Shown: one piece after another, positions 18,391-36,041 of the stretch
Numbering within the stretch: position 1 is the stretch's first letter
How the letters are laid out: every line of letters begins with the position of its first letter
NCBI GenBank assembly: GCA_050953065.1
Contig: JBMNLZ010000003.1
Span: 480,001 to 544,000 of the forward strand
Origin: Bacilli bacterium
GTDB taxonomy: Bacteria > Bacillota_I > Bacilli_A > ML615J-28 > CAG-698
Reading direction: 5' to 3'
Length of the DNA stretch: 64,000 nt
The notes under the pieces: generated by a model
Database searches by the model: none
Told to the model about the DNA's origin: nothing
What the model saw: the letters and a program-made list of their open reading frames with translations, nothing else
Made by a program: the position numbers and the translations under genes

Positions 18391-21300
18391 TATTAAACTC
18401 CTATAAAGGAATAATATTCACGCTGTAGAAGTTAGCAAAATTAAAGGTGACATCTAGTTACAACTCCTATAAAGGAATAATATTCACATAGAGAAAGTGT
18501 CAAAGTATTGGTGGACACTCTGTTACAACTCCTATAAAGGAATAATATTCACGATTATGAAAATTGAAAAAAATGGAAAGGAGTTAGAGTTACAACTCCT
18601 ATAAAGGAATAATATTCACGAACTAGTGAATGGTCAGTGGAAGTTGACTACTATGTTACAACTCCTATAAAGGAATAATATTCACGGTATGAATTCCCTG
18701 ATAAGACTTCAGGACCTAGAGTGTTACAACTCCTATAAAGGAATAATATTCACAAGAAGCTAAGAAAGTTAAAGAAGCTGAGACTTTGTTACAACTCCTA
18801 TAAAGGAATAATATTCACGAATTAACTGAACTATATAATGATAATCTAGATTTGTTACAACTCCTATAAAGGAATAATATTCACAGGGAATCCGTTTACA
18901 ATGGCCACTGAGAAAGACCGGTTACAACTCCTATAAAGGAATAATATTCACAAAATGTAGTAGAAAGTACTGCTGAAACAGTTATGGGTTACAACTCCTA
19001 TAAAGGAATAATATTCACAAGTATTGGTAGACACTCTTACTGGAGCCATCCAGTTACAACTCCTATAAAGGAATAATATTCACGATAAGTGTGGCCAAAC
19101 TCTTCCGAAAGACCAAATGTTACAACTCCTATAAAGGAATAATATTCACTCATAAAGGAGTTCCCGCAGAGAAACTTCTTATCAGTTACAACTCCTATAA
19201 AGGAATAATATTCACGAAAACAGCAAGAATAGTGCTGTAAGGGCTGCTATGTTACAACTCCTATAAAGGAATAATATTCACATTCATACGTTTTTTAAAA
19301 ATAATTATTCTCTAGGTTACAACTCCTATAAAGGAATAATATTCACAAGTTTAAAGCTGGAGAAAAAACTATCAGTTATTACGTTACAACTCCTATAAAG
19401 GAATAATATTCACTGGGTAATGGACACTCATAATTGTGAAGTGATAAAAGTTACAACTCCTATAAAGGAATAATATTCACAAGATGAAAAATTCTGGGTT
19501 TGTCGCATTGACAAGTTACAACTCCTATAAAGGAATAATATTCACAAGTGAAAATAAATATAAATATTTCTTGACTTTAAGTTACAACTCCTATAAAGGA
19601 ATAATATTCACATTTTTATGAGAAGAGTAAAGATAAGTATCATATGTTACAACTCCTATAAAGGAATAATATTCACTCAACCGAAAGGTTGATTTTTTGT
19701 TTAAAAAAATGTTACAACTCCTATAAAGGAATAATATTCACAAGCTACTACGTAATATGGTGAATGACCTCTTACGTTACAACTCCTATAAAGGAATAAT
19801 ATTCACGTTACAACATTTGAATATTTTTTCAATGTATTTATGTTACAACTCCTATAAAGGAATAATATTCACAAAGACAAAGTAGCGATATTATATATGA
19901 TAATTAGTTACAACTCCTATAAAGGAATAATATTCACAAATGAAAAAAATTACTAAAGAAGTGTTAGAAAGTTACAACTCCTATAAAGGAATAATATTCA
20001 CATTTGAATATGTTAAGAAACCGATTAACATTTAAGTTACAACTCCTATAAAGGAATAATATTCACATTTAAAAATAAGAAGAAAAGGAGTTATCATGAA
20101 AAGTTACAACTCCTATAAAGGAATAATATTCACCTAGAATCGCTGAAATGGAAGCTCAATTAGCTCTAGTTACAACTCCTATAAAGGAATAATATTCACA
20201 TAGAATAAAGTTTTTAAATAATAAACAATATCAAGTTACAACTCCTATAAAGGAATAATATTCACTTGTAGCCGAAAAAAGAGTTCCATCAGAAGCTGAG
20301 TTACAACTCCTATAAAGGAATAATATTCACGATTTTGATTTAAACAAAAAAATTGAAATTGAGACAGTTACAACTCCTATAAAGGAATAATATTCACTCG
20401 CACCATCTACCACAAGAGAAGTTTTCATCAGAGTTACAACTCCTATAAAGGAATAATATTCACGTAGTAAAAGGGGGGCGCTAGTTTGAAATCTTTAGTT
20501 ACAACTCCTATAAAGGAATAATATTCACAGACTAAAAACGGAAAGGATTGGCGAACAAGTATTGTTACAACTCCTATAAAGGAATAATATTCACAATAGA
20601 AAATGCACTTTAAAAAAAAGAGTTGAAAAGTTACAACTCCTATAAAGGAATAATATTCACAATTTTAAAACTGTTTATAAACCTAGTTCTATAAAGAGTT
20701 ACAACTCCTATAAAGGAATAATATTCACTATAATGATAGTATTTGGTTTAATAGGCTTTATTGTTACAACTCCTATAAAGGAATAATATTCACGTTTATT
20801 TTTGTACATATACTATTAATGATGAATTTATGTTACAACTCCTATAAAGGAATAATATTCACAAGAAATGAATAAAAATAACGAACTAAACAAAAGACAG
20901 TTACAACTCCTATAAAGGAATAATATTCACAGTAAAGGAAATAGTTATATTTTAAGTGATGGACTTTGTTACAACTCCTATAAAGGAATAATATTCACGG
21001 TTTATTAGGAGATAGCAACTAAGTGGGCGGTAGTTACAACTCCTATAAAGGAATAATATTCACAAAAAACGGGTGAGATATTAAATATTCATGAAGTTTA
21101 GTTACAACTCCTATAAAGGAATAATATTCACAGTTAGTCAAAAAAGTTAGGGGGTGAAAAAGAATGTTACAACTCCTATAAAGGAATAATATTCACATGA
21201 GTATGAATGAATTTGAAGTAGGCGAAGTTGTAGTTACAACTCCTATAAAGGAATAATATTCACATAGTGTCATCAAGTTTTAATTCTCTTGCACGTAGTT

Positions 21301-21724
21301 ACAACTCCTATAAAGGAATAATATTCACAGTTAGGAGTTGAAGAAATAAATGGGAAAACCATGTTACAACTCCTATAAAGGAATAATATTCACATGATGG
21401 AACAGACAACAAATAAATTCATTCCAAGTTACAACTCCTATAAAGGAATAATATTCACTTAACTAAGTCTGTGCCAAATAGTATGCCAACATCAGTTACA
21501 ACTCCTATAAAGGAATAATATTCACATATTTATGTATTATATAATAGAGTTAGTCAAAAAAGTTACAACTCCTATAAAGGAATAATATTCACACAGTGTA
21601 AGCGCTGGAATAGATGTAACTATTAAGTTACAACTCCTATAAAGGAATAATATTCACTTGAAAAAGTAGATAAAAACGGGAAAATTTATCAAAGTTACAA
21701 CTCCTATAAAGGAATAATATTCAC
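18391..21724 (-). CRISPR. CRISPR array: 51 repeats (31 bp; transcribed form GTGAATATTATTCCTTTATAGGAGTTGTAAC) and 50 spacers of about 33-38 bp
   Basis: Repeats counted by eye. The degenerate repeat at 18391-18421 marks the trailer and the AT-rich leader lies next to cas2, so transcription is from the minus strand. Confidence 0.98.
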
Positions 21725-21885
21725 AGCTCAAAAATATATTCATTCATATTTTTGGATGTGTTTATTTCTATTTTTATAATTTTCTTATATTTTTTTAAAA
21801 AAACAATTATTTTTTTATCGACCATCGACTTTTTTAAATCGTTTTTTACAGTAAAATTTACTGAGTTTTAATCGATGGTCGAAAA
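21725..21885 (-). promoter_or_regulatory. CRISPR leader with 11-bp inverted repeat TCGACCATCGA/TCGATGGTCGA
   Basis: AT-rich region between cas2 and the first repeat. IR arms at 21818-21828 and 21872-21882. Confidence 0.8.
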
Positions 21886-22146
21886 TTATATAACAATTTC
21901 TTGCTTTCTTTCTTTTCCAATATAGTTTTTTACTAAATATTTATCTGAAAGCATTTCATATATTACGATACTATCATAATCTTTATCAGTAACATTATCT
22001 AATTCTATTTTTAAATCTCTTAACTGTTTATAAGTTAGATTCCCTTCAAATACAGATTCTTGAAGATGATATAAATAACGCCTTAATATCTTCATCACTT
22101 TTACACATCTTTTAGCTTCTACATCATATGATATTATTACATACAT
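21886..22146 (-). CDS. cas2: CRISPR-associated endonuclease Cas2
   Basis: MYVIISYDV...YLYHLQESVFEG...DSIVIY motifs. Confidence 0.95.
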   Translation of the reverse strand: MYVIISYDVEAKRCVKVMKILRRYLYHLQESVFEGNLTYKQLRDLKIELDNVTDKDYDSIVIYEMLSDKYLVKNYIGKERKQEIVI

Positions 22147-22147
22147 A

Positions 22148-23146
22148 TTACCACCCCATTTTAAAGCCTACATATCGTTCTTTTTCTTTAATATGATTTG
22201 ATAATTTATGTATCTCTTTACTTATAATTTGATTATATGATAAATTGTTTTTTGATAAATTTGTTTTAATAGTTGATTTTAAATTGTTTTCTATTTCTTC
22301 AATAAAGATTTTAGCTCCTTCTTTATTTAAATAAATACCCTCTTTGTATTCAAAAAAATGTGTTTTTAGAATTTGTTTTTTATTTATCATTCTAAAAATA
22401 AGTCTATCAATTAGCACAGGTTTAAAGATATCTGCAATATCGAATTGCAAGCCTTCTTTTCTTCTTGCATTACTATGAATAAAAGGGAAAGAAATATGCA
22501 AACTAGAACGATGAATTTTGTTAGCTATTAAAGAATATAACAGAGCATAACCATAACTCATCAAAGCATTTACTTCATCCTTAGGAGGATTTTTAGTTCT
22601 TTTTAAAAAACTAAATTCATTGTTTCTAATAATTTCAGAAAAAGAACTATAATATATTTGTTTGGCTTTAGCCTCATAAATCATTAGTTCATCATATTTT
22701 TTAAGTTCACATTTTTTTATGTTTTTTAAGACTTCACTTAATTCATTTATTTCAGAATTTAAAATAGCATATTTTTTATGATAATATTTTAAAAGAGCTA
22801 AGCAATTATAAATTGAAGAATATGTAATCTCTTTTGCAACATAATTTCTTTTAATATCATCATTTAAACACATTACTTGCTTAACAATTACCTTTCCAAA
22901 CTTTGGAAAGTTTGGAATAAAACTTCCTAAATATTTACCATAATATGAAAAGAAATTAACACTAATATAATTATCATTTAAAATAGAAATCGTATTTTTA
23001 TTTAAAGTTATTTGTGAGAAAGCATTAATTTGTTCAATTTGATTTACAGGTAAATACGTTTTATTGTTTTTAGAATCAATTAATACAAGACTATTGTCTT
23101 GTCTTAATAGTTCACCATGAGAATATAAATAATATCTATTCTTCAT
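22148..23146 (-). CDS. cas1: CRISPR integrase Cas1 (type I-B-like)
   Basis: GELLRQDNSL, FFSYYGKYLGSF, RTKNPPKDEVNALMSYGYALLY and FDIADIFKPVLIDR motifs. Start placed at the ATG at 23146. Confidence 0.95.
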   Translation of the reverse strand: MKNRYYLYSHGELLRQDNSLVLIDSKNNKTYLPVNQIEQINAFSQITLNKNTISILNDNYISVNFFSYYGKYLGSFIPNFPKFGKVIVKQVMCLNDDIKRNYVAKEITYSSIYNCLALLKYYHKKYAILNSEINELSEVLKNIKKCELKKYDELMIYEAKAKQIYYSSFSEIIRNNEFSFLKRTKNPPKDEVNALMSYGYALLYSLIANKIHRSSLHISFPFIHSNARRKEGLQFDIADIFKPVLIDRLIFRMINKKQILKTHFFEYKEGIYLNKEGAKIFIEEIENNLKSTIKTNLSKNNLSYNQIISKEIHKLSNHIKEKERYVGFKMGW

Positions 23147-23855
23147 ACTTAAGCATACCAAACCCCATTGAATTTTTAGATCCAATCCCTGTATTAAGAA
23201 TAATATTTAAAATAGCTTGATCTAGATTTTCAAAGGTAATACTTATATCATATGCTTTAATGAAACTCTTTTTAAAATGCATTAGTCTACTCTTTTTTTC
23301 AATAATTTCAGGAATTAAAAATAGAGGGCATTCTCTATCAAAAGTTAATGCATATTTCTTTTTAATATTATTAATTATAGAATTTTTAAATTTTTCATCA
23401 TTTGGACTAAAGTAATTAGTTCTTTTTTCATCTTCTTCATAGCAAGTAACTGGTGAAATACTACTAAAAGTCATTTTCTCTTTTATAGGGAAAAAATCTT
23501 TCAAATTATCATAACCATTGTGTTCAACAATGTTTTTACCAATTTGAACAAATTGGTTCATGCTTAAAAATTCTGAAACCTTTATAGCTATATCCTCATC
23601 CATACACGCTAAATCAAAATAAGCATTTGAAAGAAATGTAATTTCTTTGGAACTAGCTAAATATTTAAATTCCCCAAACAAATCACTAATTGTAAACATT
23701 TTAAATTTTCTATTTTCAAACCTATTACCTTCATTATGCAATTGCTTAAATTTTTCATCACTGCCAAGCATTGTATAAACCAAACTTTGAATATAGTGTT
23801 TATAATTAATAGGAATTGTTTTTCCCTTTAAAGCTAATTTAATTCTTACTCTCAA
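23136..23855 (-). CDS. cas6: CRISPR pre-crRNA endoribonuclease Cas6
   Basis: PINYKHYIQSLVY, LHNEG..RKFKMFT and GIGSKNSMGFG motifs. TTG start at 23855 after GGAGGT. Confidence 0.92.
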   Translation of the reverse strand: MRVRIKLALKGKTIPINYKHYIQSLVYTMLGSDEKFKQLHNEGNRFENRKFKMFTISDLFGEFKYLASSKEITFLSNAYFDLACMDEDIAIKVSEFLSMNQFVQIGKNIVEHNGYDNLKDFFPIKEKMTFSSISPVTCYEEDEKRTNYFSPNDEKFKNSIINNIKKKYALTFDRECPLFLIPEIIEKKSRLMHFKKSFIKAYDISITFENLDQAILNIILNTGIGSKNSMGFGMLKYEE

Positions 23856-24534
23856 TAGCTCTACCTCCACCTATAAAATTAGTCTTCCCAAGACCAATTT
23901 CAAAAAAAACTCTATTTATATTCTTTACTTCAAACTCACCAATTAAACCACTTAAATTAAACAATTTATCATTAAATCTATATCTAAATTCATCATAGAT
24001 TTTCTTTTCATTTAGACATTTTAAAGAAATGTCTAAAGAAAAATCACAATTATAATTTTTATTGTAATATTCTAATTGTTTAATTATATTTTCACATTCA
24101 ACAATCGGAGTTATAATTCTAATCTTCCCAGAATAATTATCTTTAGAAATAACTTCTTTTTTATGTTCTAATAATTGATAAAAATATTCGAAGAAATAAT
24201 TACTTTCAAAAAAACTAATTATATAATCTTCATATTTTACTAATTCTTTAAATAAGAAAATATTTATAGTGATAATCTCACCTTGTGAGATTTCTTTTTT
24301 TTCAACAAAATTTCTTTCAATCATTAGTCCTGGATAACTTGTAAAATTTTCTCCACTTATATGATAATAAATACAAGAAGGAGCCAGTTTACAATCAATA
24401 CAATTACCATCAATATTAATACACGTTAATCTTTTAATTTTTTTTATAATTTCATGATAGATTAAATATTTATAGTCTTTATTAAAACTAGCTCCAAAAG
24501 GAAACTTTAAAGTAAATTGATGTTTTATAACCAT
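23839..24534 (-). CDS. Second, divergent Cas6-like RAMP with a Cys cluster
   Basis: N-terminal CINIDGNCIDCKLAPSCIY and C-terminal Gly-rich loop GLGKTNFIGGG. Confidence 0.7.
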   Translation of the reverse strand: MVIKHQFTLKFPFGASFNKDYKYLIYHEIIKKIKRLTCINIDGNCIDCKLAPSCIYYHISGENFTSYPGLMIERNFVEKKEISQGEIITINIFLFKELVKYEDYIISFFESNYFFEYFYQLLEHKKEVISKDNYSGKIRIITPIVECENIIKQLEYYNKNYNCDFSLDISLKCLNEKKIYDEFRYRFNDKLFNLSGLIGEFEVKNINRVFFEIGLGKTNFIGGGRAIESKN

Positions 24535-25640
24535 TCTATTTCAACAAATCCTGGGATTTCTTCATAGTTTTCAAATTCTGCACTTGAAACAATATTCATA
24601 GAACCAATTACATATGGTTTAGCAATATCTTTAGCTTTTTTTGGATCTTTACCAGGATTAAAAAAATCATAAAATCTTGTTCTATAGAAGTTTTCATCAA
24701 AAGCATGACCTGCTGATTTAACTATATAATTAGTATTCTTACCTAATTGCATAATTATTTTATTATTTTCTAACTTATTTCTTAGATCAGCAATTTGATT
24801 TAAAGCAGATTTTTTATCAAAGTCTTTTTCATAAGGAATGTTTTTTATGAATGCTTCTTCATACTTCAAAGCATTTAAAACAAAATCTTTATTCATCTTT
24901 TGAAAAAGATTTTTTATATTAACAATTCTATTTGATATTTCTTTATATATAACATATGAAATATTGTTTTTAAATTCAACTTTTGGATTTAATGCTAAAT
25001 TATTTATTAAGATAAATTCATCTTTTTTAAAAGTGTCTTTTTGTATACATTCATAAACTACTGGCATTGGACCTTTTTTTGAAATTCTTGAAATTAAAAC
25101 TACAATTGGTTCATCATCAAATACTACATCCCTACAAATTAATTTTTGATTGCTCAATGTGAATACTTCTCTTTCAACTCTTTCAACTTCTCTTTTATTT
25201 GAAAGATTTGCTTTATACCAATTTCTAATTTCACTATTATTTTTAATAACATCAAACATAATAACATTGATTATATAGCCCTTTAAAGATGAACCTGGTA
25301 TCATCAGTTTTGAATTTGTTTTTATATTTTCATATATATCCAACTGATTAATTTTAGGGCAAGCCATCTTTATTTGATATTCAAAATCAATAGTTTCTAA
25401 TTCTTTAGTAGTCGGAGAAAACAACTCCGCCAATTGTTTTTTAGCTTCTCCTGATGCACTAGCATTAGTTGTTGATAACATTTTTAAAAACTCATTTGAT
25501 AATAAAGTGCTTTTATTTTTTTTGAAAGCTAATTCTAAAATTTTTTCAAATTCATATTTTTTATTTGCTTGAATTAAATAATTAGGATATTTCAATCCAT
25601 TACCAATATGAAGAGGTGATATTATTTTTATATTTTGCAT
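24525..25640 (-). CDS. csm5: Type III-A RAMP Csm5
   Basis: IISPLHIGNG and IPGSSLKG motifs, and gene position. Confidence 0.88.
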   Translation of the reverse strand: MQNIKIISPLHIGNGLKYPNYLIQANKKYEFEKILELAFKKNKSTLLSNEFLKMLSTTNASASGEAKKQLAELFSPTTKELETIDFEYQIKMACPKINQLDIYENIKTNSKLMIPGSSLKGYIINVIMFDVIKNNSEIRNWYKANLSNKREVERVEREVFTLSNQKLICRDVVFDDEPIVVLISRISKKGPMPVVYECIQKDTFKKDEFILINNLALNPKVEFKNNISYVIYKEISNRIVNIKNLFQKMNKDFVLNALKYEEAFIKNIPYEKDFDKKSALNQIADLRNKLENNKIIMQLGKNTNYIVKSAGHAFDENFYRTRFYDFFNPGKDPKKAKDIAKPYVIGSMNIVSSAEFENYEEIPGFVEIEWL

Positions 25641-25649
25641 AAAAACCTC

Positions 25650-26597
25650 CTATACCAAAAAGCCTAAGCCGTTATGATAAACTATAAATTTTTCTCCATT
25701 TTCAGGAACTAAAGAACCAACAACATCTTTAGTTGTTTTAAAAACACTTCCTTCAGTCATACAAGTAATTTCTTTTTTATAGACTCTTTGGCTTGTTAAA
25801 TCAAATTTATTATTTAAAACTGCAATTTTGTAATATGACAAATCATAATCAATATCATTATTATTTAAAACTGTTTTTGACAATAATACTTTTTTCTCAT
25901 TGCTAGAGTTAAAGAATACTTCTTTAAACTCTAAAAATTTAAATAAGTTAATGCCAATTGAACGTTTTCCACCAATTGAAAGATATTCAAATTTTTTCAA
26001 ACTTTCAACAACATCTTTTAAAATCTCATCATTTTCTACTTTTAAATAACAATCAAAGCAGACTTCTTTTTCTAAATAGGTTACCCTATTATAAAACAAA
26101 TTTGTATCATCATTATAATTAACTTTATTTCTAGTTCTTACGATTGATTTATAAGGAGCATCGTATGAAAAACTATCCTTTTCTTCCTTTTTAATCAATA
26201 ATGTATTATCTTGAATTAAAAGATATTCTTGGTTGATAATTTTTTGATTATATGTTTTATTAAATTCAAGATAATTTTTTTGATAATCTTCAAAGATTCC
26301 TTTAGAAACAAACTTAATTTTTTTAGCTTTTTTGATTCTTTTAAAATCATCTAATTTAGCATCGCTTGCTAAATTATCTGGATTTATATCTAAAGGAAAT
26401 GGTAGCGTATTTTCAAAAAAGAATGAAGAAACCAAAAACTGATATTTTTGATTGTTCAAATTATCTAAATAATTTTCCAATTCTTCTTTTCCTAAATTAC
26501 TTTTTAAAGCCATAGCCAAGGCTCCAAAAAAGTTTTGTGAGTCAGGAATAGAAGTAATTGGACCACAATTAATAAACTTTAGTTTATAAATTTTCAT
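25650..26597 (-). CDS. csm4: Type III-A RAMP Csm4
   Basis: PDSQNFFGAL, VSSFF, IGGKRSIG and EGSVF motifs. Confidence 0.9.
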   Translation of the reverse strand: MKIYKLKFINCGPITSIPDSQNFFGALAMALKSNLGKEELENYLDNLNNQKYQFLVSSFFFENTLPFPLDINPDNLASDAKLDDFKRIKKAKKIKFVSKGIFEDYQKNYLEFNKTYNQKIINQEYLLIQDNTLLIKKEEKDSFSYDAPYKSIVRTRNKVNYNDDTNLFYNRVTYLEKEVCFDCYLKVENDEILKDVVESLKKFEYLSIGGKRSIGINLFKFLEFKEVFFNSSNEKKVLLSKTVLNNNDIDYDLSYYKIAVLNNKFDLTSQRVYKKEITCMTEGSVFKTTKDVVGSLVPENGEKFIVYHNGLGFLV

Positions 26598-26598
26598 A

Positions 26599-27186
26599 TT
26601 ATAATTCTCTTTCGTTTTTTATAACAACTGCTACCTTACCATATCCTCTTGTACCACTACCACCTAAATAATTTAGTTCTAATAGGTCAAAGCCCTTTTT
26701 AAGACTTTTAGCCATTCCCGTAATATCTTCGTTGTCATATGCATTAATAACTATTTCACTTTCAAAAGAAATTCCCGCTGGGACTCTTTCTGAAATTCTT
26801 GGATTAGCTGCTTTGCCTGTTTTTTTATCAATACTGTTTTCAGTTTTAGCTTCAGTAAATACATTTTTACCTAAAGAATTTTCTAAAGTTTCAATTGATT
26901 CATTAGTTAAATTCATATCTCTAAAAATTACTCTTGAAGGAGCATTTTCATCTGGTTCAAAAATTTTCATATTAGGATCATTATTTAATTCTAAAAGACT
27001 TCTAATTTTGCCTTTAAGGCTGCTGCCTGGAATAATTGGTTGATTATTTAATGGATTCTTAATAACAGGATTATCAATCCCACCAATTCCATAAATTTCT
27101 TTTGAACCACCTATATGAATACCAGTTAATATTTTTAACTCAATTTCCCACACTAATCTTTTTGTTATTCTAATATCTTTACTCAT
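26599..27186 (-). CDS. csm3: Type III-A backbone RNase Csm3
   Basis: TGIHIGG..GGIDNPVIKNP (catalytic Asp present), IPGSSLKGKIRSLLE and YLGGSGTRGYG motifs. Confidence 0.95.
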   Translation of the reverse strand: MSKDIRITKRLVWEIELKILTGIHIGGSKEIYGIGGIDNPVIKNPLNNQPIIPGSSLKGKIRSLLELNNDPNMKIFEPDENAPSRVIFRDMNLTNESIETLENSLGKNVFTEAKTENSIDKKTGKAANPRISERVPAGISFESEIVINAYDNEDITGMAKSLKKGFDLLELNYLGGSGTRGYGKVAVVIKNEREL

Positions 27187-27199
27187 TTTTTCCTCCTAT

Positions 27200-27661
27200 T
27201 TATTTTTTAAGATAAGCTACTATACTTTCAAAAAATTTTGAAAAAGTATAAATATCTTTATCAGATTTTAATTTATCATTATTAATACAAACTTTCATTA
27301 ATTCAAAAAAATCTTTTTCAACTAATTCTCGACCTACTGCATAAGCTACTAGTGGTAAAATCATAAACATTTTTTCTAAACCTTTTTCAAAACCATCAGT
27401 TTTAGTTAATTCTTCTGCTTCTTTTACCATAGAATAAATTTTTCTAATTTGATTAGATTTAGTTGATTTAAATCCATTAGCGATTTTATAAGCTTTACCT
27501 TCAGGTAAATACAAATCTTCCTTTGTTAAATATTTAAATAAAGTAAAGTTAGCATTTTTAATTTCTCTAGAAATTACAACAACTTCACTTTCTTGAAAAT
27601 CTCTTCTTTGTTGAAAAGTGTTTTGATTATAATTTCTATTACCATAATTATTTTTATTCAT
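27200..27661 (-). CDS. csm2: Type III-A small subunit Csm2
   Basis: SNQIRKIY, VAYAVGR and FFESIVAY motifs. Confidence 0.9.
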   Translation of the reverse strand: MNKNNYGNRNYNQNTFQQRRDFQESEVVVISREIKNANFTLFKYLTKEDLYLPEGKAYKIANGFKSTKSNQIRKIYSMVKEAEELTKTDGFEKGLEKMFMILPLVAYAVGRELVEKDFFELMKVCINNDKLKSDKDIYTFSKFFESIVAYLKK

Positions 27662-27666
27662 AATTT

Positions 27667-29961
27667 TTATTTTTCCTTTCTACTTTTTAATAAGGCATAT
27701 TCAAAAATTACCTTGTATTTTTTTAAACTCTCAATTTCAACATCTCTACGAACAAAAAGCTTTTTTAACTTATCTTTCTCTACTCCTTTTAAATTTCTTT
27801 CAAAAGAATATGAAAGATGAGGTATAAATTTCATAAATTCATAAATTGGATTATTTGATTCTAGTGCTCTTGCTAAACAATCATAAATCTTATAAACAAT
27901 CGACCTAGAAATTTGTCCTTCTTCAAGTTTTGCTTTATAATCTTCACTTTCTTTAATCACAAAATCTAGTTCACTATTATTTAGTGTAACATCAAAAATA
28001 GTAAAACTATTTTTTTCTTCTTTTGCTTTAGAAGCCTCTAAATATCTTTCAGCTTGCAATACTGCATATCTAATTGGCGACTTGGAGTTAAAAATTTCCA
28101 CCCCAGAACTTATATGAATGTCTTTATTATCTGAAACATAATTTTTCAATTCATCACAAATGTCTTTATTAATACTTAAGATTTCACTAGCAGGAGCAAT
28201 CAAAACCAGATCATCTCCTCCTGAATAATTGATATAGACTTTATCATTTCTATTCTTCTTCATCATATCATTAAGTTTCTTTGTAAAGAAATAATCTAGC
28301 GTTCTTGATAAAGTTAATACTTTTGAGAATGTTTTAAATTCTTTAGGTATTCCTCTATTAAAAATAAAGCCTAAATTATCAACATCCATTTTTAAAATAG
28401 CTAACTTTTTATCACCTATTGATTTAGCAGCTATTTCTTCAAATGAATTTCCATTTGCATTTAAATTAGCATAATACTTAGACTCACCTAATTCATTACC
28501 ATTGATAGTTACATAAAAAGCATCTTCTAATATCTCTTTAAATTCTTCAGCTATTTTAATTTGACCTAATTTCCCAAAATCAAGTTTAAACAACTTATCT
28601 CTTATAGAACCATTAAAAGTATATTCAACAATAAGTTTATTATTATGTACTAATAAGTCATTTAATTTAATATAATCTTCACAATCTTGACAACGTTCTC
28701 CATTTAAAGCTTCGTTGATTTCACACAATTCACAAACCTTGTTTAAAGCCTCGCCTACAAAAGAAACATCTTCTTTTTTAAATAAAGTTTTAAATTTTTG
28801 TTTTTTACTAATCAAAACTTTTTTATTATCAGGATGCATCACTTCATCATAAATAATATTGAAATCGTTTATATCGCCTTCATAAGTTGCAAATGCAAAA
28901 GACAATTTACCTTTATATTTTTTAAACAATTCATCTTCAATTTCAAATAATGTTTTTTCAATCACTTCATCAAAATTATCTAATTTAGGTAAAAGCAACA
29001 TCCCTCTACCACCAGCTGAAAACAAAATGTTTTCATATGATAAATTAAAGTCATTTAAAATCTTATATCCAATTAAGTCCGTTAAAAGTAATAAGAAAAA
29101 TGATCTGGTTCTTAAAGACTTAGCAATATCTTTTTTAGTTGCTTCACCTTCAGTAACTTTATAAATGTAATCTTGGGTTCCTGATAAATCATATTCTAAT
29201 AATACAAATTTTAAATCTCTTGATGCATCTCCAAACTTATAATTTAACGACTTTAAAGTTGCTGCTAAAGCTGCAGTAACTTTTAAGTGATCAAACAAAC
29301 TTACAGAAGATTTGTATTCTGGAAAATCTTTTACATAAGTTGCAGAAGGAATACAAGTTGTATACGATTTAAGCAATGGATATAATCTGTGATGAATTAT
29401 AAAATCATTTTTGTCTTTAATCTTTTGACATTCTTCTCTAAATTTATCGAATAACTCCTTATATTCTTTTTTTGCCTGATCCAAATTAGTTGTTTTTGAT
29501 TCACTAATTAATTTAAAATCATCAAGTGTTTTCAAATCCAAATATTTTGGACTAGAAACACTTTGCCCTTCTAAAGAAATCTCATTAAAAATACTGTTCA
29601 TTCTTTTCATAATGAAATCATTCTTATTTTGTTTATAAGCAATGTCTTCATCTACGTCTTCATCGACAGGACTTTTTCTATCATGTGCAGAAGCAAGTCT
29701 ATCTGCTTTAGCGACTTCCGATCTTTCATCTTTATGATGGTTAGCTGCTAAAGTATTAATACTTGTAAGATTAGGCAAGTTATTCAAAATAAATTTTGAA
29801 GTAAAAGCCGCATGCACATACTCTCCCATATTTTTGATAAACGTTTCGTCATAACTTCCTGCTTCTATTCTATCACCTGTTCTTTGATAAAATTTACCAA
29901 TATCATGCAAAAGTCCTGCTAATGTAGAATGCAAAATTTCTAATTTTTTTTCTCTCTCCAT
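27667..29961 (-). CDS. cas10: Cas10/Csm1 with intact HD and Palm (GGDD) motifs
   Basis: GLLHDIGKF, SLFDHLK, KMDVDNLG and YSGGDDL motifs. Confidence 0.97.
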   Translation of the reverse strand: MEREKKLEILHSTLAGLLHDIGKFYQRTGDRIEAGSYDETFIKNMGEYVHAAFTSKFILNNLPNLTSINTLAANHHKDERSEVAKADRLASAHDRKSPVDEDVDEDIAYKQNKNDFIMKRMNSIFNEISLEGQSVSSPKYLDLKTLDDFKLISESKTTNLDQAKKEYKELFDKFREECQKIKDKNDFIIHHRLYPLLKSYTTCIPSATYVKDFPEYKSSVSLFDHLKVTAALAATLKSLNYKFGDASRDLKFVLLEYDLSGTQDYIYKVTEGEATKKDIAKSLRTRSFFLLLLTDLIGYKILNDFNLSYENILFSAGGRGMLLLPKLDNFDEVIEKTLFEIEDELFKKYKGKLSFAFATYEGDINDFNIIYDEVMHPDNKKVLISKKQKFKTLFKKEDVSFVGEALNKVCELCEINEALNGERCQDCEDYIKLNDLLVHNNKLIVEYTFNGSIRDKLFKLDFGKLGQIKIAEEFKEILEDAFYVTINGNELGESKYYANLNANGNSFEEIAAKSIGDKKLAILKMDVDNLGFIFNRGIPKEFKTFSKVLTLSRTLDYFFTKKLNDMMKKNRNDKVYINYSGGDDLVLIAPASEILSINKDICDELKNYVSDNKDIHISSGVEIFNSKSPIRYAVLQAERYLEASKAKEEKNSFTIFDVTLNNSELDFVIKESEDYKAKLEEGQISRSIVYKIYDCLARALESNNPIYEFMKFIPHLSYSFERNLKGVEKDKLKKLFVRRDVEIESLKKYKVIFEYALLKSRKEK

Positions 29962-29962
29962 T

Positions 29963-31270
29963 CTATTCTCCTTTCGTTTTATTTTTTATATAAATATTTA
30001 TTTCTTCATATAAATCCCATTTAATTTGTTTTTGAATATCTTTATTACAGTATTCAAAAACTTCTTTAATATTCTTTAATATTGCCTTAACACTAATATT
30101 AAATTCTTTTTTTATTTTATCTTCACTAAAGCCTACAATTTCATGAGAAGATTTATTTCTGATTTTCCTTTCAAAGTCTAAAAAAGAATCTAGTTTTTTA
30201 CTATAAAAAGAAAATTTTTCTTTATCCTCTTTTATTAAATATTCAAATAATCCTTTCGCATTTCTAAAGGAAATGTATTCATTTTTTTTATCTAAATGAT
30301 TTTTTATATTAGAATACTTTTCTTCTAATTTTTCTACATCTATAAGATTTCTTTGTTTTTTAGAAGCATAATTAAATATGCTATCATTGAATTCTTTTTT
30401 TATGACCATATCAGTTAGTTCAACAAATATCGGAGAAATTGCTCTTGCAAAATCAGTCGCCAATCCAAGTTCATCTCTAATAGACAAATACAATATGTAT
30501 TCATATATTTTAGAAGTTTCTTTTCTTTTTATCGGGAAAAACTCAATTTTTGTTGGAATTTGGAAAGCTTTTTTATAGTTAAGAATTGATTTAAAATAGA
30601 CTTTATCAACTAAAGCTTTAGTTTCCTTGCCAAAAATATTTGGATGGTATTTCTCTACTATTGTTTTTGCTCCTAAATAATTGTATGAATCAAGCATCGT
30701 ATTAAAAATAGAAATTGTTGAAAACCTAATTAGATTAGGAAGTTTTGAAACCTCGCATCTATTTGGAGAATCTATTTCACCATCATAAGAATACTCTAAA
30801 ACTTCTTTACCCGTTGTCACTTTAAACATTTCTTTATTGTCATCTTTATGTGTACTTTCTTTAATATTTTTATTTACTTTCATGTAAATAAAAGGATGAT
30901 GAATATGAACACTAATCAATTCCAGTGAAGCAATCATTTGAGGAGTTCCTGATGTAATATTTAATATCACTTCGCTCTCAGGGTATTTATCAATTATATC
31001 TTTTAACGTTTTTTCAATATCATCATCAATTATTCCCTCTTCATTAGGTTTTGTTAAATCAGGTCTTTCAATTCTAATAACTTGGATTTTTGGATTTAAT
31101 TCTTTTAAAGCCTCATCAATTATATTATTTGGATCTCTATCTATAGCATCCTTTGAATAATACAAATACGCTTTGTCTATATGGTTGTGTCTTACTATAT
31201 GTAAAATTGCACCATCTCTACAATTTGAAATTGGATCAGTCATACCAACAAAACTAAATAATATTTTCAT
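29963..31270 (-). CDS. csm6: Csm6 CARF-HEPN ribonuclease
   Basis: ILFSFVGMTDP..DGAILHIVRH, LNITSGTPQM (CARF) and HEPN RNKSSH motifs. Confidence 0.92.
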   Translation of the reverse strand: MKILFSFVGMTDPISNCRDGAILHIVRHNHIDKAYLYYSKDAIDRDPNNIIDEALKELNPKIQVIRIERPDLTKPNEEGIIDDDIEKTLKDIIDKYPESEVILNITSGTPQMIASLELISVHIHHPFIYMKVNKNIKESTHKDDNKEMFKVTTGKEVLEYSYDGEIDSPNRCEVSKLPNLIRFSTISIFNTMLDSYNYLGAKTIVEKYHPNIFGKETKALVDKVYFKSILNYKKAFQIPTKIEFFPIKRKETSKIYEYILYLSIRDELGLATDFARAISPIFVELTDMVIKKEFNDSIFNYASKKQRNLIDVEKLEEKYSNIKNHLDKKNEYISFRNAKGLFEYLIKEDKEKFSFYSKKLDSFLDFERKIRNKSSHEIVGFSEDKIKKEFNISVKAILKNIKEVFEYCNKDIQKQIKWDLYEEINIYIKNKTKGE

Positions 31271-31305
31271 ATGTCCTCTTTTTTTAAAAAAATCTACTTT
31301 ATTAC

Positions 31306-31439
31306 ATTATAATACAAAACTAACATTTTAAAAAGATAAAAAACAAAAATCTTTTTGTTCCCATTATGGAGTTAATTTAATACTTATTAGCTTTTTTGGT
31401 TCCTATTGTATGGACTTTTTAAAATAGATAATGTATAAT
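31306..31439. promoter_or_regulatory. Divergent csm6/WYL promoter region with two related operator-like sites
   Basis: Plus strand TGGACT-N17-TATAAT (31411-31439) and a minus-strand TATAAT at 31311-31306. Sites GTTCCCATTATGGAGTT (31357) and GTTCCTATTGTATGGACTT (31399). Confidence 0.55.
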
Positions 31440-31471
31440 CAAATTATCTTTTAAAAAAGAAGGTGTAATTT

Positions 31472-32518
31472 ATGGGATTTATAATTTTAACCGATAATAA
31501 TAAACAACATCTTAATCTCTCTAAAGAGGCTTGGCTTTGTATTGATGATGATATCAATAATTTTACAAATCCTAGAAACAAGAAAAATCTATCAGGATTT
31601 TTAAATACTGTTTTTAATAATTTTTATAGAGAAGCTAATGCTTCTATCTCAATCAGAATAACTAATTATCAGGATGAGTTAAATAATATCTTAAAGCCAT
31701 TTGAAATTGGAATTGAAAGTAATATACTTTTTACCTTAAAAGAAAAATTAATCGAAAACGAAACGTTTAAATTAAAACAAAATATTTCTCAAATTAAGGG
31801 TGAAGGCAGAAAATTTAGAATTAATAATGATAATTTAAAAATTCTAGAAGATTCTCATGAGAATCTTTTTTACGATAATTCCTTAGGGCTTTACTTAAAA
31901 GCGATATTTGAGGAATACACTAAAAAACCATATTATTTAAGAGAACAAATTTATTTTAAAGAACACATTGATAAAATCAATTATAGTCTTAAAAATAATC
32001 AAATGATAAAAATAACTTTAATAAATAACGTTAAATTTTGGGTTTCACCATTTTCATTAGAAACCGAAAAAACTCAAACCTTTAATTATTTAATTGGAGT
32101 TGCTAGAGAATTTAATAAAAATCAAACTCCACCTAAAACAATCTCTTCGTTTAGATTGTCAAAAATCAAAGACATTTATATTAGTGAAAGAAAATCAAAT
32201 ATTTCAAATCAATTGAAAAACTCTATATCAAAACAACTAAATAATAGTGGACCACAATTTATGAGTTCCACTGAATGTTTAATAAAAGTAAAGTTAACTG
32301 AAAAAGGAAAAAAGAAATACTCCAGTCAAATATATATGAGACCAACATATACAAAAATTGAGGATGATATCTATTATTTTTATGCAACTGAAACTCAAAT
32401 AATTTATTATTTTTTTAAATTTGGTAACGATGCTTTAATAATCGAACCAATTGCTTTAAAAAAATATTTAGAAAAATTTTATTATGAATCATATATAGCT
32501 TATAAAGAAATAAAATAA
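31472..32518 (+). CDS. WYL-domain protein (WYL1-like, probable N-terminal RHH elements)
   Basis: VSPF..FNYLIG..SFRLSKI WYL core, KVKLTEKG..MRP and YYFFKFG C-terminal motifs. Confidence 0.85.
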   Translation: MGFIILTDNNKQHLNLSKEAWLCIDDDINNFTNPRNKKNLSGFLNTVFNNFYREANASISIRITNYQDELNNILKPFEIGIESNILFTLKEKLIENETFKLKQNISQIKGEGRKFRINNDNLKILEDSHENLFYDNSLGLYLKAIFEEYTKKPYYLREQIYFKEHIDKINYSLKNNQMIKITLINNVKFWVSPFSLETEKTQTFNYLIGVAREFNKNQTPPKTISSFRLSKIKDIYISERKSNISNQLKNSISKQLNNSGPQFMSSTECLIKVKLTEKGKKKYSSQIYMRPTYTKIEDDIYYFYATETQIIYYFFKFGNDALIIEPIALKKYLEKFYYESYIAYKEIK

Positions 32519-32552: not shown

Positions 32553-32587
32553 ATAAAAATGTCTACTTAAATAGTAGACATTTTTAT
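32553..32587. terminator. Bidirectional terminator between the convergent WYL and ruvB-like genes
   Basis: ATAAAAATGTCTACT/AGTAGACATTTTTAT perfect inverted repeat. Confidence 0.8.
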
Positions 32588-32590
32588 TGT

Positions 32591-33904
32591 TTACTTCATA
32601 TAATTAACAACTGCCTCAGTTGCAACTCTACCCTTTGGTGTTTTCCTAATAAAACCAATTGCCATTAAGTATGGTTCATGTTGGTTTTCAACTGTTTGGA
32701 CACTTTCACCAAGCATTGTTGCGATAGTTTCAAGTCCAACCGGACTTCCTTTATATTCATTAATTAAAATATTTAAAATATCTCTATCAGTTGCATCTAA
32801 CCCTAAATCATCAATCTTACGCTCTTTAAAATACATCTCAACAATCATTTCAGTAATTGTTGTTGATTTTAAAACTTGTGTTTTATCTCTAATTCCTTTT
32901 AAGTACTTATTAGCAATTCTAGGGACACCTTTACTTCTCTTAGCAATTGCTTCAATTGCCTTATCTTCAATCTCAAAACCAAATTCACCTTTAGCATTTT
33001 TTAGTTTTGTTGCGCTGTTTTTAATTAATTGAGTTAATTCTTCTATTGAACAAAGAGATAATTTATACTGTAAAGCAAAACGATCTCTAAATGGTTTTTC
33101 TAATAAACCTAAATGATTGGTTGCACCAATCAAAGTAAATTTAGGTAACTTGATAAATTCATTTATAACATCTTTTTTTTCTTTTTTAAAATAAGAAATA
33201 GAATAACTTTCTAAAGCAGTATAAATAGCCTCAGCTGCAGCTTTATTAATTCTATGAATTTCATCAATAAAAATGATATCACCTTCACTTATATTAGAGA
33301 TCACCTGAACAAAACTATTAACATCTTTTATTGCAGGTCCGTTCATTATGACAATGTTGGCATCCATTTCACTAGCTATTACTTTAGCAAGTGTTGTTTT
33401 ACCAAGACCAGCTGGACCATAAACCATAATATGTTCTAAAGTATCATGTCTTTGCTTAGCAGCAATGATTGCTTCTTTTAAAGACTTAACTACTTGAGTT
33501 TGACCAATAAACTCAGATAATTTCTTAGGTCTTAAAATATCTCTATCATCTAAATAAATATTTTTACTTTTATTTTTAGATTTTTGTTTTTTGATTAGAA
33601 GTTTATTATAAAGTTCTAATTGAGTATCAAGTCTAGTATGTTCTTTTTTTAAAGGTTTAATTAGTTTTCTAGATAAACCCTTTTCTTTTATAACTTTATC
33701 TATTTCTAAAAATGAAGTAATAGTTTTACTTAAATCTTTTTTTAGTTTCAAAGGAATATTTGAAACTAAAATATTATTTAAGTTTTGAACAATATTCATC
33801 AGATTTTCTAAAACTTTCTTTTCATTTTTTGATTTTATATCTTTAATCATTAAAACAATTAAATCTTTACTATTAAGATATAAAGCTTCTACTGTTAAAG
33901 GCAT
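32591..33904 (-). CDS. ruvB: RuvB-like Holliday-junction AAA+ ATPase with an N-terminal extension of about 115 aa
   Basis: LRPKKLSEFIGQ, GPAGLGKTT, IFIDEIH, FTLIGAT, FRDRF, GVPRIAN and EPYL..TPKGR motifs. Confidence 0.85.
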   Translation of the reverse strand: MPLTVEALYLNSKDLIVLMIKDIKSKNEKKVLENLMNIVQNLNNILVSNIPLKLKKDLSKTITSFLEIDKVIKEKGLSRKLIKPLKKEHTRLDTQLELYNKLLIKKQKSKNKSKNIYLDDRDILRPKKLSEFIGQTQVVKSLKEAIIAAKQRHDTLEHIMVYGPAGLGKTTLAKVIASEMDANIVIMNGPAIKDVNSFVQVISNISEGDIIFIDEIHRINKAAAEAIYTALESYSISYFKKEKKDVINEFIKLPKFTLIGATNHLGLLEKPFRDRFALQYKLSLCSIEELTQLIKNSATKLKNAKGEFGFEIEDKAIEAIAKRSKGVPRIANKYLKGIRDKTQVLKSTTITEMIVEMYFKERKIDDLGLDATDRDILNILINEYKGSPVGLETIATMLGESVQTVENQHEPYLMAIGFIRKTPKGRVATEAVVNYMK

Positions 33905-33915
33905 TTAATCTCTCC

Positions 33916-34548
33916 TTATTTTAAATTAATGATTTCTTTATAAGCATTTAACTTTTCTTTATCAAAACAATTAATCATAAATTCTTTTAAATTCATAATT
34001 TTTGAATAATTATCTTTATTTAACTTTTTACCATATTGATTGTATTCAGCTTGAATTAAAAATGTATGAGTATATATTTTAATTCTTTTCTTTAAGATAT
34101 TAGATAAAGATTCTTTATAAGAAGAACACTGAGTTACTTTTTCATGGAATTGATAATTAGCATTTTCAGTAGTTCTATTAAAACTAAATTCAATAATAAT
34201 TATATTATTAGAATTTAATAATAAATAATCTATTCTACTTGTTGTATATGGAATATGATATTCAGCAATAATACTAGTTTCGTTTAAATATTTTTCTTCT
34301 AAATTATCAATTAAACTAAAAATAATATTAATACTATCCATCCATGAAACAACTTCTGTCTCACAAACATCTAATCCTTGTTTACTAGCATATTCTTTTA
34401 GATTAATAAAGTATTGATAATCTTTTATTCTTTTAACTCTATCATCTAACCCCATATCACGGATTTGCCAGGTAACTGAACCTTCTTGTAATTTAGAAAT
34501 AGCCTTTTTAAATTCTATTAAATTTTCATATGCAAATAAACATTTCAT
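33916..34548 (-). CDS. Hypothetical protein with PD-(D/E)XK-like motif
   Basis: EVVSWMDSI and AEYHIPYTTSRIDYLLL..IIIIEFS, resembling the N-terminal nuclease-like region of DUF2075 proteins. Confidence 0.55.
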   Translation of the reverse strand: MKCLFAYENLIEFKKAISKLQEGSVTWQIRDMGLDDRVKRIKDYQYFINLKEYASKQGLDVCETEVVSWMDSINIIFSLIDNLEEKYLNETSIIAEYHIPYTTSRIDYLLLNSNNIIIIEFSFNRTTENANYQFHEKVTQCSSYKESLSNILKKRIKIYTHTFLIQAEYNQYGKKLNKDNYSKIMNLKEFMINCFDKEKLNAYKEIINLK

Positions 34549-34655: not shown

Positions 34656-36041
34656 CTAAACTTGTGGAAACACTTTTTTCATTAATCCTTTTAAAATAAC
34701 TAAAACTAACAATATAAGATAACAAGCAATTCTAATTTCTGGTACTACTTTCCCATATAAAAAGCTATAATATATATTAATCCCCGTATGTCCAAGCACA
34801 ACTACAGCAATATCAAAAATCATTAAAATTATAAGAAGACTAATAATTGTTTTCTTTTTTTCTAGCCTTTCAAAATTAGCATATTTTTGCCAGATTACCA
34901 ATCCTATTAATTCAAACATTATTAAAACATATGGCCACATATTTAAAACCACATCAATTGAATAAGTCAACACAACAAATGAATATATAAAATAATTTAT
35001 ACTCATACTTGCTAGATATATAAAATATAAAAGCGTTCCAATAATTATTGTTTTTTTAACATTAAAAAATATAAGCAAGACTAAACCTCCTAATATGATT
35101 AATGAATATACTATCTGCATTGTTAATACTACAGCATATGAAATATTAAAAGAATCCATAAGAGAAAGTCCAAACGAAGATATAAATGCATGAATAATAC
35201 TCATAACAATTCCTAATGTTACAAACAAAGTTTTAAAGCCTTTTTCTTTTTTATAATTAAAAGTTATTAAAAGAATAATCCCCCAAATCATAAAAACAAA
35301 CGAAAAACCCTTAAAGATCCATATAAAACCCAAGGTATTAAAAGGAAGAATTTTATTTAATATTAAATTAAGATGTTCTAATATTACTAATATAGCAGCT
35401 ATTATAATACCCTTCTTTTCTTTTTTATATATAAAATAAAACAATACCAAATGTAGAATTAAAAAATATATAAGTATTGCTTGTATACCAACAATGATTA
35501 ATAAATGAGGTTGACTAGGTAATCTAATCAAATATAAAACAAAAAGAATATCTAATGCTACTATAACAAAATATAAAAAAATAGCTAAAAACAGATTCTT
35601 TAACTTTTTATACTTTTCTAAAGTTTTAATTGTTTTTAAATCTTTTCTACTCATAAAAAGAAAAACAATAAAATTAATAATTAATAGTCCAGTTACATAT
35701 AAAAATGCAAAAGTTTTAAAAGCACCTAAAAAAGAAATAGTAACTGCGATAATTAATAAAACATTAATTACAAATAATATATTATAACCAATAATAAACT
35801 TCTTATCTTTTTTTTCTATTATTTCTTTATTATCATTTATTATCTCATAGTCTTCCTTTAAAAAGACTTCTTTTTCTACTTCAAATACACTAGCTAATCT
35901 TTCAATATCATCATCTGTTAAATTTAGTTTTCCTTCTTCCCATTTAGAAATAACCTTAGTTTTAACATTCATTTTTTTAGCTAATTCTTTTTGAGTCCAT
36001 AATTGATTAATTCTTAAATCTTTAATTATCTTAAAAACCAT
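34656..36041 (-). CDS. XRE HTH fused to a multi-pass membrane domain
   Basis: WTQKELAKKMNV..ISKWEEG HTH followed by roughly a dozen hydrophobic segments. Confidence 0.8.
   Translation of the reverse strand: MVFKIIKDLRINQLWTQKELAKKMNVKTKVISKWEEGKLNLTDDDIERLASVFEVEKEVFLKEDYEIINDNKEIIEKKDKKFIIGYNILFVINVLLIIAVTISFLGAFKTFAFLYVTGLLIINFIVFLFMSRKDLKTIKTLEKYKKLKNLFLAIFLYFVIVALDILFVLYLIRLPSQPHLLIIVGIQAILIYFLILHLVLFYFIYKKEKKGIIIAAILVILEHLNLILNKILPFNTLGFIWIFKGFSFVFMIWGIILLITFNYKKEKGFKTLFVTLGIVMSIIHAFISSFGLSLMDSFNISYAVVLTMQIVYSLIILGGLVLLIFFNVKKTIIIGTLLYFIYLASMSINYFIYSFVVLTYSIDVVLNMWPYVLIMFELIGLVIWQKYANFERLEKKKTIISLLIILMIFDIAVVVLGHTGINIYYSFLYGKVVPEIRIACYLILLVLVILKGLMKKVFPQV

Follow-up and report, generated by a model that had tools for sequence, protein, structure and literature searches.

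A WYL1-like protein divergent from a type III-A CRISPR-Cas operon, and the phased operator-like site of its family

What does a protein of the WYL1 type do beside a type III-A CRISPR-Cas system? WYL1 is known only as a booster of Cas13d, with an unclear mechanism. RspWYL1 enhances RNA cleavage by Cas13d in vitro, and Yan et al. (2018), who describe WYL1 as a branch combining a ribbon-helix-helix (RHH) domain with a WYL domain and 'associated primarily with Ruminococcus', leave undecided, in the parts of their article used here, whether it acts on transcription or directly (PMC5935466). The question is raised by a 64,000-nucleotide stretch of DNA from a Bacilli bacterium (assembly GCA_050953065.1, contig JBMNLZ010000003.1, positions 480,001 to 544,000), called the window below and used for all coordinates unless another contig or locus is named. 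In it, the gene of a 348-residue protein, P0001 (open reading frame (ORF) called at 31472..32518, plus strand), is divergent from csm6 (29963..31270, minus strand), the first gene of a type III-A operon, with a 201-bp intergenic region (31271-31471) between the two. A first-pass annotation of this DNA, right about the length of the ORF and about its facing away from csm6, took P0001 for an RNA sensor that regulates or enhances the type III-A system. The regulating part of that proposal is strengthened here by a phased operator; the enhancing part, drawn only from the analogy with RspWYL1, finds no such support. We think it rather likely that P0001 is a ligand-sensing RHH-WYL-WCX transcription factor that regulates its own gene and probably controls the csm operon.

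P0001 is a full-length homologue of RspWYL1 with an RHH-WYL-C-terminal architecture. RspWYL1 was described as made of three parts, namely an N-terminal domain in which a single chain carries two RHH motifs (a tandem RHH with a helical insertion), an Sm-like WYL barrel and a C-terminal dimerisation domain (PMC6547453). When P0001 was compared with all PDB chains using phmmer, a single match was returned, 6OAW 'WYL1' (E 2.2e-11), in which residues 16-345 of P0001 are aligned with residues 28-388 of the chain. A profile of 53 homologues (A1) reached the same entry at E 2e-39 (positions 14-360 versus 24-390), and no other chain fell below E 0.1. All the motifs by which the resemblance had first been noticed align with the 6OAW chain in the phmmer alignment: LSKEAW of P0001 with LSPSAY, LSGFLNTVF with MSSFLTSIF, LGLYLKAIFEEY with LRRFLKAVYEDY, REQIYF with RERLIF, KVKLTEKG with KVYLTEKG, and QIIYYFFKFG with QVKYYFNKFG. 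Pfam and NCBIfam returned no family for P0001 even at E<=10, neither of them calling a WYL or a helix-turn-helix (HTH) domain; the PADLOC CRISPR-associated WYL model PDLC01652 does match it (E 1.5e-8, residues 159-333).

The predicted fold agrees with this homology. An AlphaFold2 model of P0001 built on A1 (predicted local distance difference test score, pLDDT, 92.4; predicted template-modelling score, pTM, 0.84) has 6oaw_B as its top Foldseek match (E 4.5e-20; template-modelling scores TMq 0.77 and TMt 0.70), followed by the WYL-to-C-terminal halves of DriD, PafBC, CapW and BrxR, which align with the model only across the WYL and C-terminal part, and then by Sm proteins. Two strands of the model, at residues 11-16 (KQHLNL, 31502..31519) and 111-116 (EGRKFR, 31802..31819), are each followed by helices and thus give the layout of a tandem RHH, with no winged HTH (wHTH). 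The WYL domain, an Sm-like β-barrel containing SFRLSKI, covers approximately residues 177-241 (32000..32194) according to the modelled strands and the PADLOC match; in the alignment of 53 sequences, its residues R228, S230 and I232 are kept in 52, 49 and 49 cases, respectively. The alpha/beta C-terminal domain (approximately residues 246-348; 32207..32515), aligned to 6OAW up to residue 388 and equivalent to the dimerisation domain of RspWYL1, appears to be WCX-like: structural matches to the C-domain of DriD reach E 3e-6, and the Pfam family PF25583 (WCX) is found in some homologues (e.g. P0022), P0001 itself having no match to it. Because 6OAW is the sole PDB match and the motif alignment, fold and profile all agree, the label 'WYL1-like, without an N-terminal wHTH' that P0001 had received is correct, and the comparison with RspWYL1 recommended at the time points to 6OAW and not to an ordinary wHTH-WYL regulator.

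The intergenic region holds two related boxes, both on the plus strand and each preceded by a T-run. The distal box, GTTCCCATTATGGA (31357..31370), follows TTTTT and has its GTTCC at -115 from the ATG of the P0001 gene; the proximal box, GTTCCTATTGTATGGA (31399..31414), has its GTTCC at -73, so that the distal box is the 5' member of a 42-bp pair. The pattern GTTCCYATTN{0,2}ATGGA matches only these two boxes in the window (0 matches in 100 shuffles), and again only these two in the 1,554,579-base genome. Likewise, when pairs of T[TG]GTTCC spaced 41-44 bp were sought on either strand, the window pair stood alone in the genome, and any regulon of P0001 is thus local. Two more matches to a single box, both inside ORFs, occur elsewhere in the genome and are probably due to chance. 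A repeat search of the window did not report the two sites, since they differ by a 2-nt indel.

The proximal box also overlaps a promoter-like site of the P0001 gene. This site, TGGACT-17-TATAAT (31411..31439, plus strand), is a pattern match with 10/12 positions in a consensus scan, and its -35-like hexamer TGGACT lies partly within the box, whose right arm keeps only GGA. On the csm6 side, a TATAAT -10-like hexamer is read from the minus strand (31306..31311), with a poor TTTTTA at the -35 position; the promoter scan omitted this site because its first hexamer is too weak. The two related sites at 31357 and 31399, the overlap of one of them with the -35 of the WYL gene, and a csm6-side promoter with a good -10 and no clear -35 had all been noticed by the first-pass annotation, and each was recovered here.

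A self-alignment of the upstream regions of homologues unexpectedly revealed the window-type box in many of them. Two sets of loci (numbered L below) were available: set 1 comprised 43 loci on contigs from one genome per species, and set 2 was drawn from 54 metagenome loci, from which 12 ORFs near-identical to set 1 or to the window were dropped and redundancy was removed, leaving 33 ORFs in 31 loci. In 41 upstream regions of 200 nt (set 1 and the window), GTTCC occurs 42 times in the sense of the gene, against a shuffle mean of 3.9 (maximum 10 in 200 shuffles) and 15 occurrences in antisense. Pairs, defined as two [GA]T[TA]CC boxes 42 or 43 bp apart, are present in 15 of these 41 regions, where random placement gives a mean of 1.07 (maximum 5 in 2000) and the antisense strand gives 1. 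As the pattern had been chosen after looking at set 1, the test was repeated on the 25 non-redundant regions of set 2 with 200 nt upstream, unused in motif finding. GTTCC was again in excess (21 in sense versus a shuffle mean of 2.4, maximum 7; 8 in antisense), and 42/43-bp pairs were found in 8/25 regions (0.47 expected, maximum 4; antisense 0). The paired operator-like sites suspected in the window are real and conserved across the family.

The two members of the pair are not alike. With a palindrome defined as an arm, N6-9 and the reverse-complement arm with at most one mismatch, the box is palindromic in 20/66 regions (shuffle mean 1.9), and in 25 phased pairs the palindromic member is the proximal box in 14 cases and the distal box in none. 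The family consensus consists of a distal TTTGTTCCTATTT half-site and a proximal GTTCC-N7-GGAAC(A). In L002, L019 and L026, as in the window, a -10-like hexamer starts 34-35 nt after the proximal box, which places the right arm of the box at the -35 position. This distance is 34-37 nt in five loci, and a fixed spacing between box and -10 was dropped as a general rule, as it holds in those five only. L035 and L041, two of the type III-A loci, repeat the arrangement of the window: gene and csm operon diverge, and a phased pair lies in the intergenic region between them. L004 and L069 have longer intergenic regions in which two phased pairs share one orientation (about -181/-139 and -87/-45 relative to the start codon); these may represent one operator for each divergent promoter.

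The residues expected to read such a site are also conserved. Within the 53 sequences, K11, Q12, H13 and N15 of the first ribbon strand are kept in 50, 51, 43 and 51 cases, and K114 and R116 of the second in 48 each; the outward-facing residues K11, H13 and N15, and K114, R116 and N118, hardly vary, identity within the family being otherwise 25-47%. In the profile alignment, K114 and R116 correspond to R131 and R133 of RspWYL1, there being probably a one-residue numbering offset between the article (PMC6547453) and the PDB chain. RspWYL1 thus shares with P0001 the three-domain architecture over the full length, the basic ribbon residues and the proximity to CRISPR genes. The two are only approximately 21-22% identical, however, and RspWYL1 has S and P where the P0001 family has the nearly invariant H13 and N15. 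Their neighbours also differ, Cas13d (type VI-D) for RspWYL1 and a multi-subunit type III-A system for P0001, and the role published for RspWYL1 is a direct stimulation of RNA cleavage together with binding of single-stranded RNA (ssRNA), no DNA operator being reported in the parts of those articles used here. Against the A1 profile, RspWYL1 scores 139 bits (PDB search) and the best 150 representatives 289-468 bits (a different library), and this gap suggests that RspWYL1 is a peripheral relative of the P0001 family.

Taken as a transcription factor, P0001 would work as follows. In each chain, the two RHH motifs would form a pseudo-dimeric DNA-reading ribbon, K-Q-H-L-N being paired with K-F-R-I-N. 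P0001, probably a dimer like RspWYL1, would bind the two phased boxes of its own upstream region, namely the distal TTTGTTCC half-site and the proximal box, which lies 42 bp (four helical turns) downstream and overlaps its own -35. In the resting state it would repress its own promoter, and it would probably also set the activity of the divergent csm6-cas10 promoter with its -10 and missing -35. A nucleic-acid ligand in the WYL/C-terminal cleft, for which ssRNA and single-stranded DNA (ssDNA) are the candidates, would then alter DNA binding and raise type III-A expression during infection or damage. Autoregulation is the firmest part of this scheme and control of the csm operon is plausible; the binding of DNA by P0001, the sign of the regulation and the ligand are what we infer. 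The transcription-factor reading is the best supported one because of the four-turn phasing, the strand bias, the overlap with the gene's own promoter and the joint conservation of ribbon and box.

Several observations nevertheless weigh against it, the main ones being biochemical. By isothermal titration calorimetry (ITC), the affinity of RspWYL1 for ssRNA is far above that for double-stranded DNA (dsDNA), and its authors blame the poor dsDNA binding on an arginine at ribbon position 4, R133 (PMC6547453), whose equivalent, R116, is conserved in the P0001 family. It may be, as a conjecture, that the dsDNA experiment lacked a cognate site. In the window, the distal box lies approximately 23 bp upstream of the expected -35 position of csm6, so that a simple occlusion of the csm6 promoter is not evident, and both boxes are weaker than the family consensus: they fail the one-mismatch palindrome definition because their right arms keep only GGA. 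Across the family, a 42/43-bp pair is missing from 43 of the 66 upstream regions; the boxes also vary in their distance from the promoter or the start codon, some proximal boxes being just before the ribosome-binding site, and no clean covariation was seen between ribbon residue 13 and the box variants ATACC, ATTCC and GTACC. The box pattern was, moreover, defined after viewing set 1, and the counts are not fully independent since some loci are close relatives (e.g. L003 and L010). Finally, in L030, in L110 and in the type III-D loci of the genome set (L023, L027 and L029), the gene either shares the direction of the cas genes or converges on them.

The neighbourhoods of the family help to decide between the transcription factor and its alternatives. 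Among 1.84 billion representative proteins, the A1 profile matched 1979 with E<=1e-3; of these, 1493 stay within E<=1e-10 and 958, counted as clusters at 50% identity, within E<=1e-30. For the two sets of loci, neighbouring ORFs were taken from a mechanical call, grouped into clusters and assigned types with Pfam, NCBIfam and PADLOC, the labels of set 2 being assigned by BLAST against the typed clusters. Type III-A genes were found in three of the 43 set-1 loci (L030, L035 and L041) and one of the 31 set-2 loci (L110), and type III-D genes in three (L023, L027 and L029) and one (L092); in L092, cas-like genes stand on both sides of the WYL1-like gene. Type III systems are therefore linked to 8/74 homologues (6/43 genome and 2/31 metagenome loci), and most homologues have no CRISPR neighbour. 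The first-pass annotation had counted on CRISPR-linked homologues, and this expectation fails for the majority and holds for these eight. STAND NTPases and helicases are among the other neighbours, and many contigs are of insufficient length for an assignment; in most of the long loci, the WYL1-like gene is at the edge of a defence-like module.

The commonest neighbour is a cluster formed by an AAA+ (CDC48/FtsH/IetA-like) ATPase, in some cases bearing an M41 peptidase part, together with one to four HslV/proteasome-beta-like genes and uncharacterised genes of approximately 200 codons (L001-L016, L031, L068-L073 and L099, e.g. L001:7214-9809; 14/43 loci in set 1 and 5/31 in set 2). It has the look of a protease-type module, as yet undescribed, that a WYL1-like regulator would control. 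In a quick tree with many forks open, from which L043 (a fragment), L042 (no ORF called) and the second L002 copy were left out, the nearest relative of P0001 is a Liberiplasma protein with 46% identity beside this AAA cluster, and both nearest relatives, L001 and L002, lie next to AAA/HslV-like genes. The four type III-A-linked proteins, that of the window included, fall in four separate places and are no more clustered than shuffled labels.

These neighbourhoods bear first on the idea that P0001 is a stand-alone autoregulated gene, whose boxes serve its own expression or a function elsewhere and whose adjacency to type III-A is a mere co-location in a defence island. We regard this as unlikely. 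Both boxes do stand in the sense of the WYL1-like gene, the proximal one overlapping its own promoter and not that of csm6; L001 and L002 sit beside a different gene cluster, and the orientation relative to cas genes varies in other type III loci. On the other hand, the uniqueness of the box pair leaves no distant regulon, most long loci place the gene at the border of a defence-like module, and the divergent layout with a shared intergenic region (201 bp in the window) recurs in L035 and L041. The csm6 promoter also has no -35, which is typical of factor-dependent promoters.

Improbable, too, is a direct helper of the effector, by which P0001 would bind ssRNA and raise target capture or RNase activity of Csm or Csm6 independently of transcription, a role that could coexist with that of a regulator. 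The R131D/R133D mutant of RspWYL1 loses ssRNA binding (PMC6547453), and these residues are conserved in P0001 as K114 and R116. Full-length homology to the only member yet characterised, a protein that stimulates Cas13d and binds ssRNA (PMC5935466, PMC6547453), the recognition of RNA targets by both type III-A and type VI-D systems, and the type III linkage of eight loci would fit such a helper. What speaks against it is that most homologues have no CRISPR neighbour and that the modules beside them are mutually unrelated, which makes a single effector-specific contact unlikely, and that the type III-A-linked members are scattered over the tree. A helper role also needs no conserved DNA operator, and even the contact between RspWYL1 and Cas13d is weak in ITC (PMC6547453).

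As for an action of the boxes in RNA, where P0001 would bind GUUCC elements or a GUUCC-N7-GGAAC hairpin in the 5' leader and control translation or stability, the strand bias in both sets, the ssRNA preference of RspWYL1 and the palindromic proximal boxes that precede the ribosome-binding site by 10-20 nt without an intervening -10 (L027, L029, L074, L089 and L093) would agree with it, but it is very improbable, as a constant spacing of 42-43 bp, which corresponds to four turns of B-DNA, would have no evident role in RNA, no distal box is palindromic, both window boxes are upstream of the predicted -10 and would thus be outside the mRNA, and an asymmetric pseudo-dimeric RHH unit could explain the strand bias on DNA.

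A transcription factor of this kind has counterparts among known WYL proteins. A ligand releases the repression by CapW and BrxR, and DriD and PafBC activate once ssDNA is bound (PMC11662680; also PMC9122601). Like P0001, CapW and BrxR have a WYL and WCX-like sensor module (Foldseek matches 9c5g, 7tb5 and 7qfz, E 3e-3 to 5e-3) and stand at the edge of varied defence modules, often divergently. They have repeat operators in their own promoter region, with a proposed ligand-released repression (PMC11662680, PMC9122601), and the phased GTTCC boxes, far above controls, would be such a repeat operator as predicted from the sequence. In contrast, their DNA-binding domain is a wHTH where the model of P0001 has a tandem RHH, and the operator of the P0001 family differs from theirs, being a half-site and a palindrome phased at 42-43 bp. 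DriD and PafBC give the best structural matches after 6OAW for the WYL-to-C-terminal half (8tp8, 9fnd, 9cu3 and 7tzv, E 1e-6 to 1e-5); they possess the wHTH that P0001 lacks, and they activate DNA-damage regulons, whereas the pair bound by P0001 would be a single local site. PafBC is a precedent for a WYL factor at a promoter without a normal -35.

WYL genes have already been catalogued beside type III-A, III-B and III-D cassettes, as predicted ligand-sensing regulators (PMC6546367; PMC4012209), and the PADLOC CRISPR 'WYL' model matches P0001. The architectures described in the consulted parts of these catalogues are CARF+WYL and HTH-WYL (Shah et al. 2018, PMC6546367; Makarova et al. 2014, PMC4012209), not RHH-WYL: 'RHH' has no occurrence in the main text of either article, nor has 'ribbon-helix' in that of PMC6546367. 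In titles and abstracts of the literature, neither a WYL1-type protein at a type III locus nor an operator of the WYL1 family was found.

The family-wide phased operator points to a transcription factor swapped between defence modules. A wider generalization is advanced more tentatively, and may well prove too broad: the WYL1 family, perhaps including the Cas13d helper, might consist primarily of RHH-WYL-WCX transcription factors with a conserved phased operator (a TTTGTTCC half-site and a GTTCC-N7-GGAAC palindrome 42 bp downstream), swapped between type III-A, type III-D, AAA/HslV-like protease and other defence modules. The type III-A system of the window would then be inducible by a nucleic-acid signal of infection, and the stimulation of Cas13d would be derived or secondary in one peripheral branch.

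Cas13d itself was looked for around the homologues and in the genome of the window. None was recognised beside homologues in the 74 loci, in libraries from which no positive-control Cas13d match was obtained; the back-translated pattern Y[LMI]KA.. used in the search would miss RspWYL1 itself (FLKAVYEDY). Loci of the RspWYL1 type were also sought by profile in 401 genomes of one order, of which 16 matched and none looked RspWYL1-type: two matches are strong and full length, 14 of the 15 others are mainly WYL-to-C-terminal, and one covers positions 116-238. One family of large neighbours, c22 (921-947 residues; L033:2815-5658, L039:5980-8757 and L040:1733-4525 in set 1, 3/43 loci; L104 and L111 in set 2, 2/31 loci), has a highly conserved C-terminal part and a middle part rich in E, K, R and A that may be a coiled coil. 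As a candidate Cas13d it was rejected on present evidence: the c22 proteins have no NCBIfam cas match, the L033 copy has one sub-threshold RING-domain match, the L040 copy has no Pfam match and no PDB sequence match at E<=0.01, the three genome copies have no PADLOC match, and their three loci have no CRISPR array.

The genome of the window (approx. 94% complete, 1.55 Mb) contains one WYL1-like gene, one cas1 and one cas2, both of the latter at the type III-A locus. A second CRISPR array of approximately 98 or more repeats (contig C2:11636-18733), whose repeat differs from that of the window array, has flanks (L046 and L047) with no recognisable cas gene within approximately 11 kb on one side and 17 kb on the other. 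Given the single cas1 and cas2 and this second array without recognisable cas genes, type III-A is the only CRISPR effector module found in the assembly. No sign of a Cas13d system was seen in this genome, and P0001 sits beside a type III-A system, as had been supposed.

The type III-A system is intact, its effector genes, adaptation module, array and catalytic motifs all being present. csm6 encodes a protein with CARF and HEPN domains (TIGR02672, E 5.9e-89, and the Pfam Csm6 CARF and HEPN families), whose HEPN R-x4-H motif is RNKSSH at residue 371. Behind it, on the same strand, 21886..29961 holds cas10/csm1 (27667..29961), csm2, csm3, csm4, csm5, a 231-residue ORF, cas6, cas1 and cas2, recognised by NCBIfam and Pfam matches. 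Csm1, Csm3, Csm4 and Csm6 exceed the cut-offs of their NCBIfam equivalogs, Csm2 passes that of a hypothetical-equivalog domain model, and Csm5 falls slightly short of its own (34.9 versus 38.3 bits); Cas10 keeps the HD motif (residue 19) and GGDD (residue 581). The 231-residue ORF (23839-24534, minus strand), between csm5 and cas6, has no Pfam or NCBIfam match and a weak Cas6-like PADLOC match (E 1.4e-5); perhaps it is another Cas6-like gene, in a degenerate state. The CRISPR array (18396..21725, strand not assigned) has 51 repeats. A relation between its repeat (..CTCCTATAAAGGAA..) and the two intergenic boxes was rejected, only TCCTAT and GGA being common to them, which a rough estimate attributes to chance.

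On the other side, a terminator-like hairpin with a 15-pair stem and a T-rich tail (32553..32587, plus strand) separates the WYL1-like gene from a convergent ruvB (32591-34548, minus strand), a RuvB equivalog above the NF000868 cut-off with an N-terminal extension of approximately 110 residues. The 210-residue product of the gene just upstream of ruvB is not recognisable as RuvA and has weak NERD and PDC-S41 matches only. Also near the CRISPR locus, a 461-residue protein (34656-36041, minus strand) has an N-terminal HTH_3 domain, to which its RmrA-like PADLOC matches are confined, and a long C-terminal part without assigned function.

What appears to be new here is a likely regulator of WYL1 architecture that is attached to a type III-A system, together with a phased operator whose conservation is supported by comparison. 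Should P0001 act instead as a direct helper, it would be the first enhancer of the WYL1 type for a class 1 effector that targets RNA. The window locus and those related to it show that the WYL1 architecture is widespread, usually not beside Cas13d, and preceded by a conserved phased DNA site. If P0001 is indeed a transcription factor, its family would constitute a class of defence regulators open to testing, in which an RHH domain takes the place of the wHTH of BrxR and CapW, and the 201-bp intergenic region and one protein would offer a small system for asking how a type III-A operon gets switched on.

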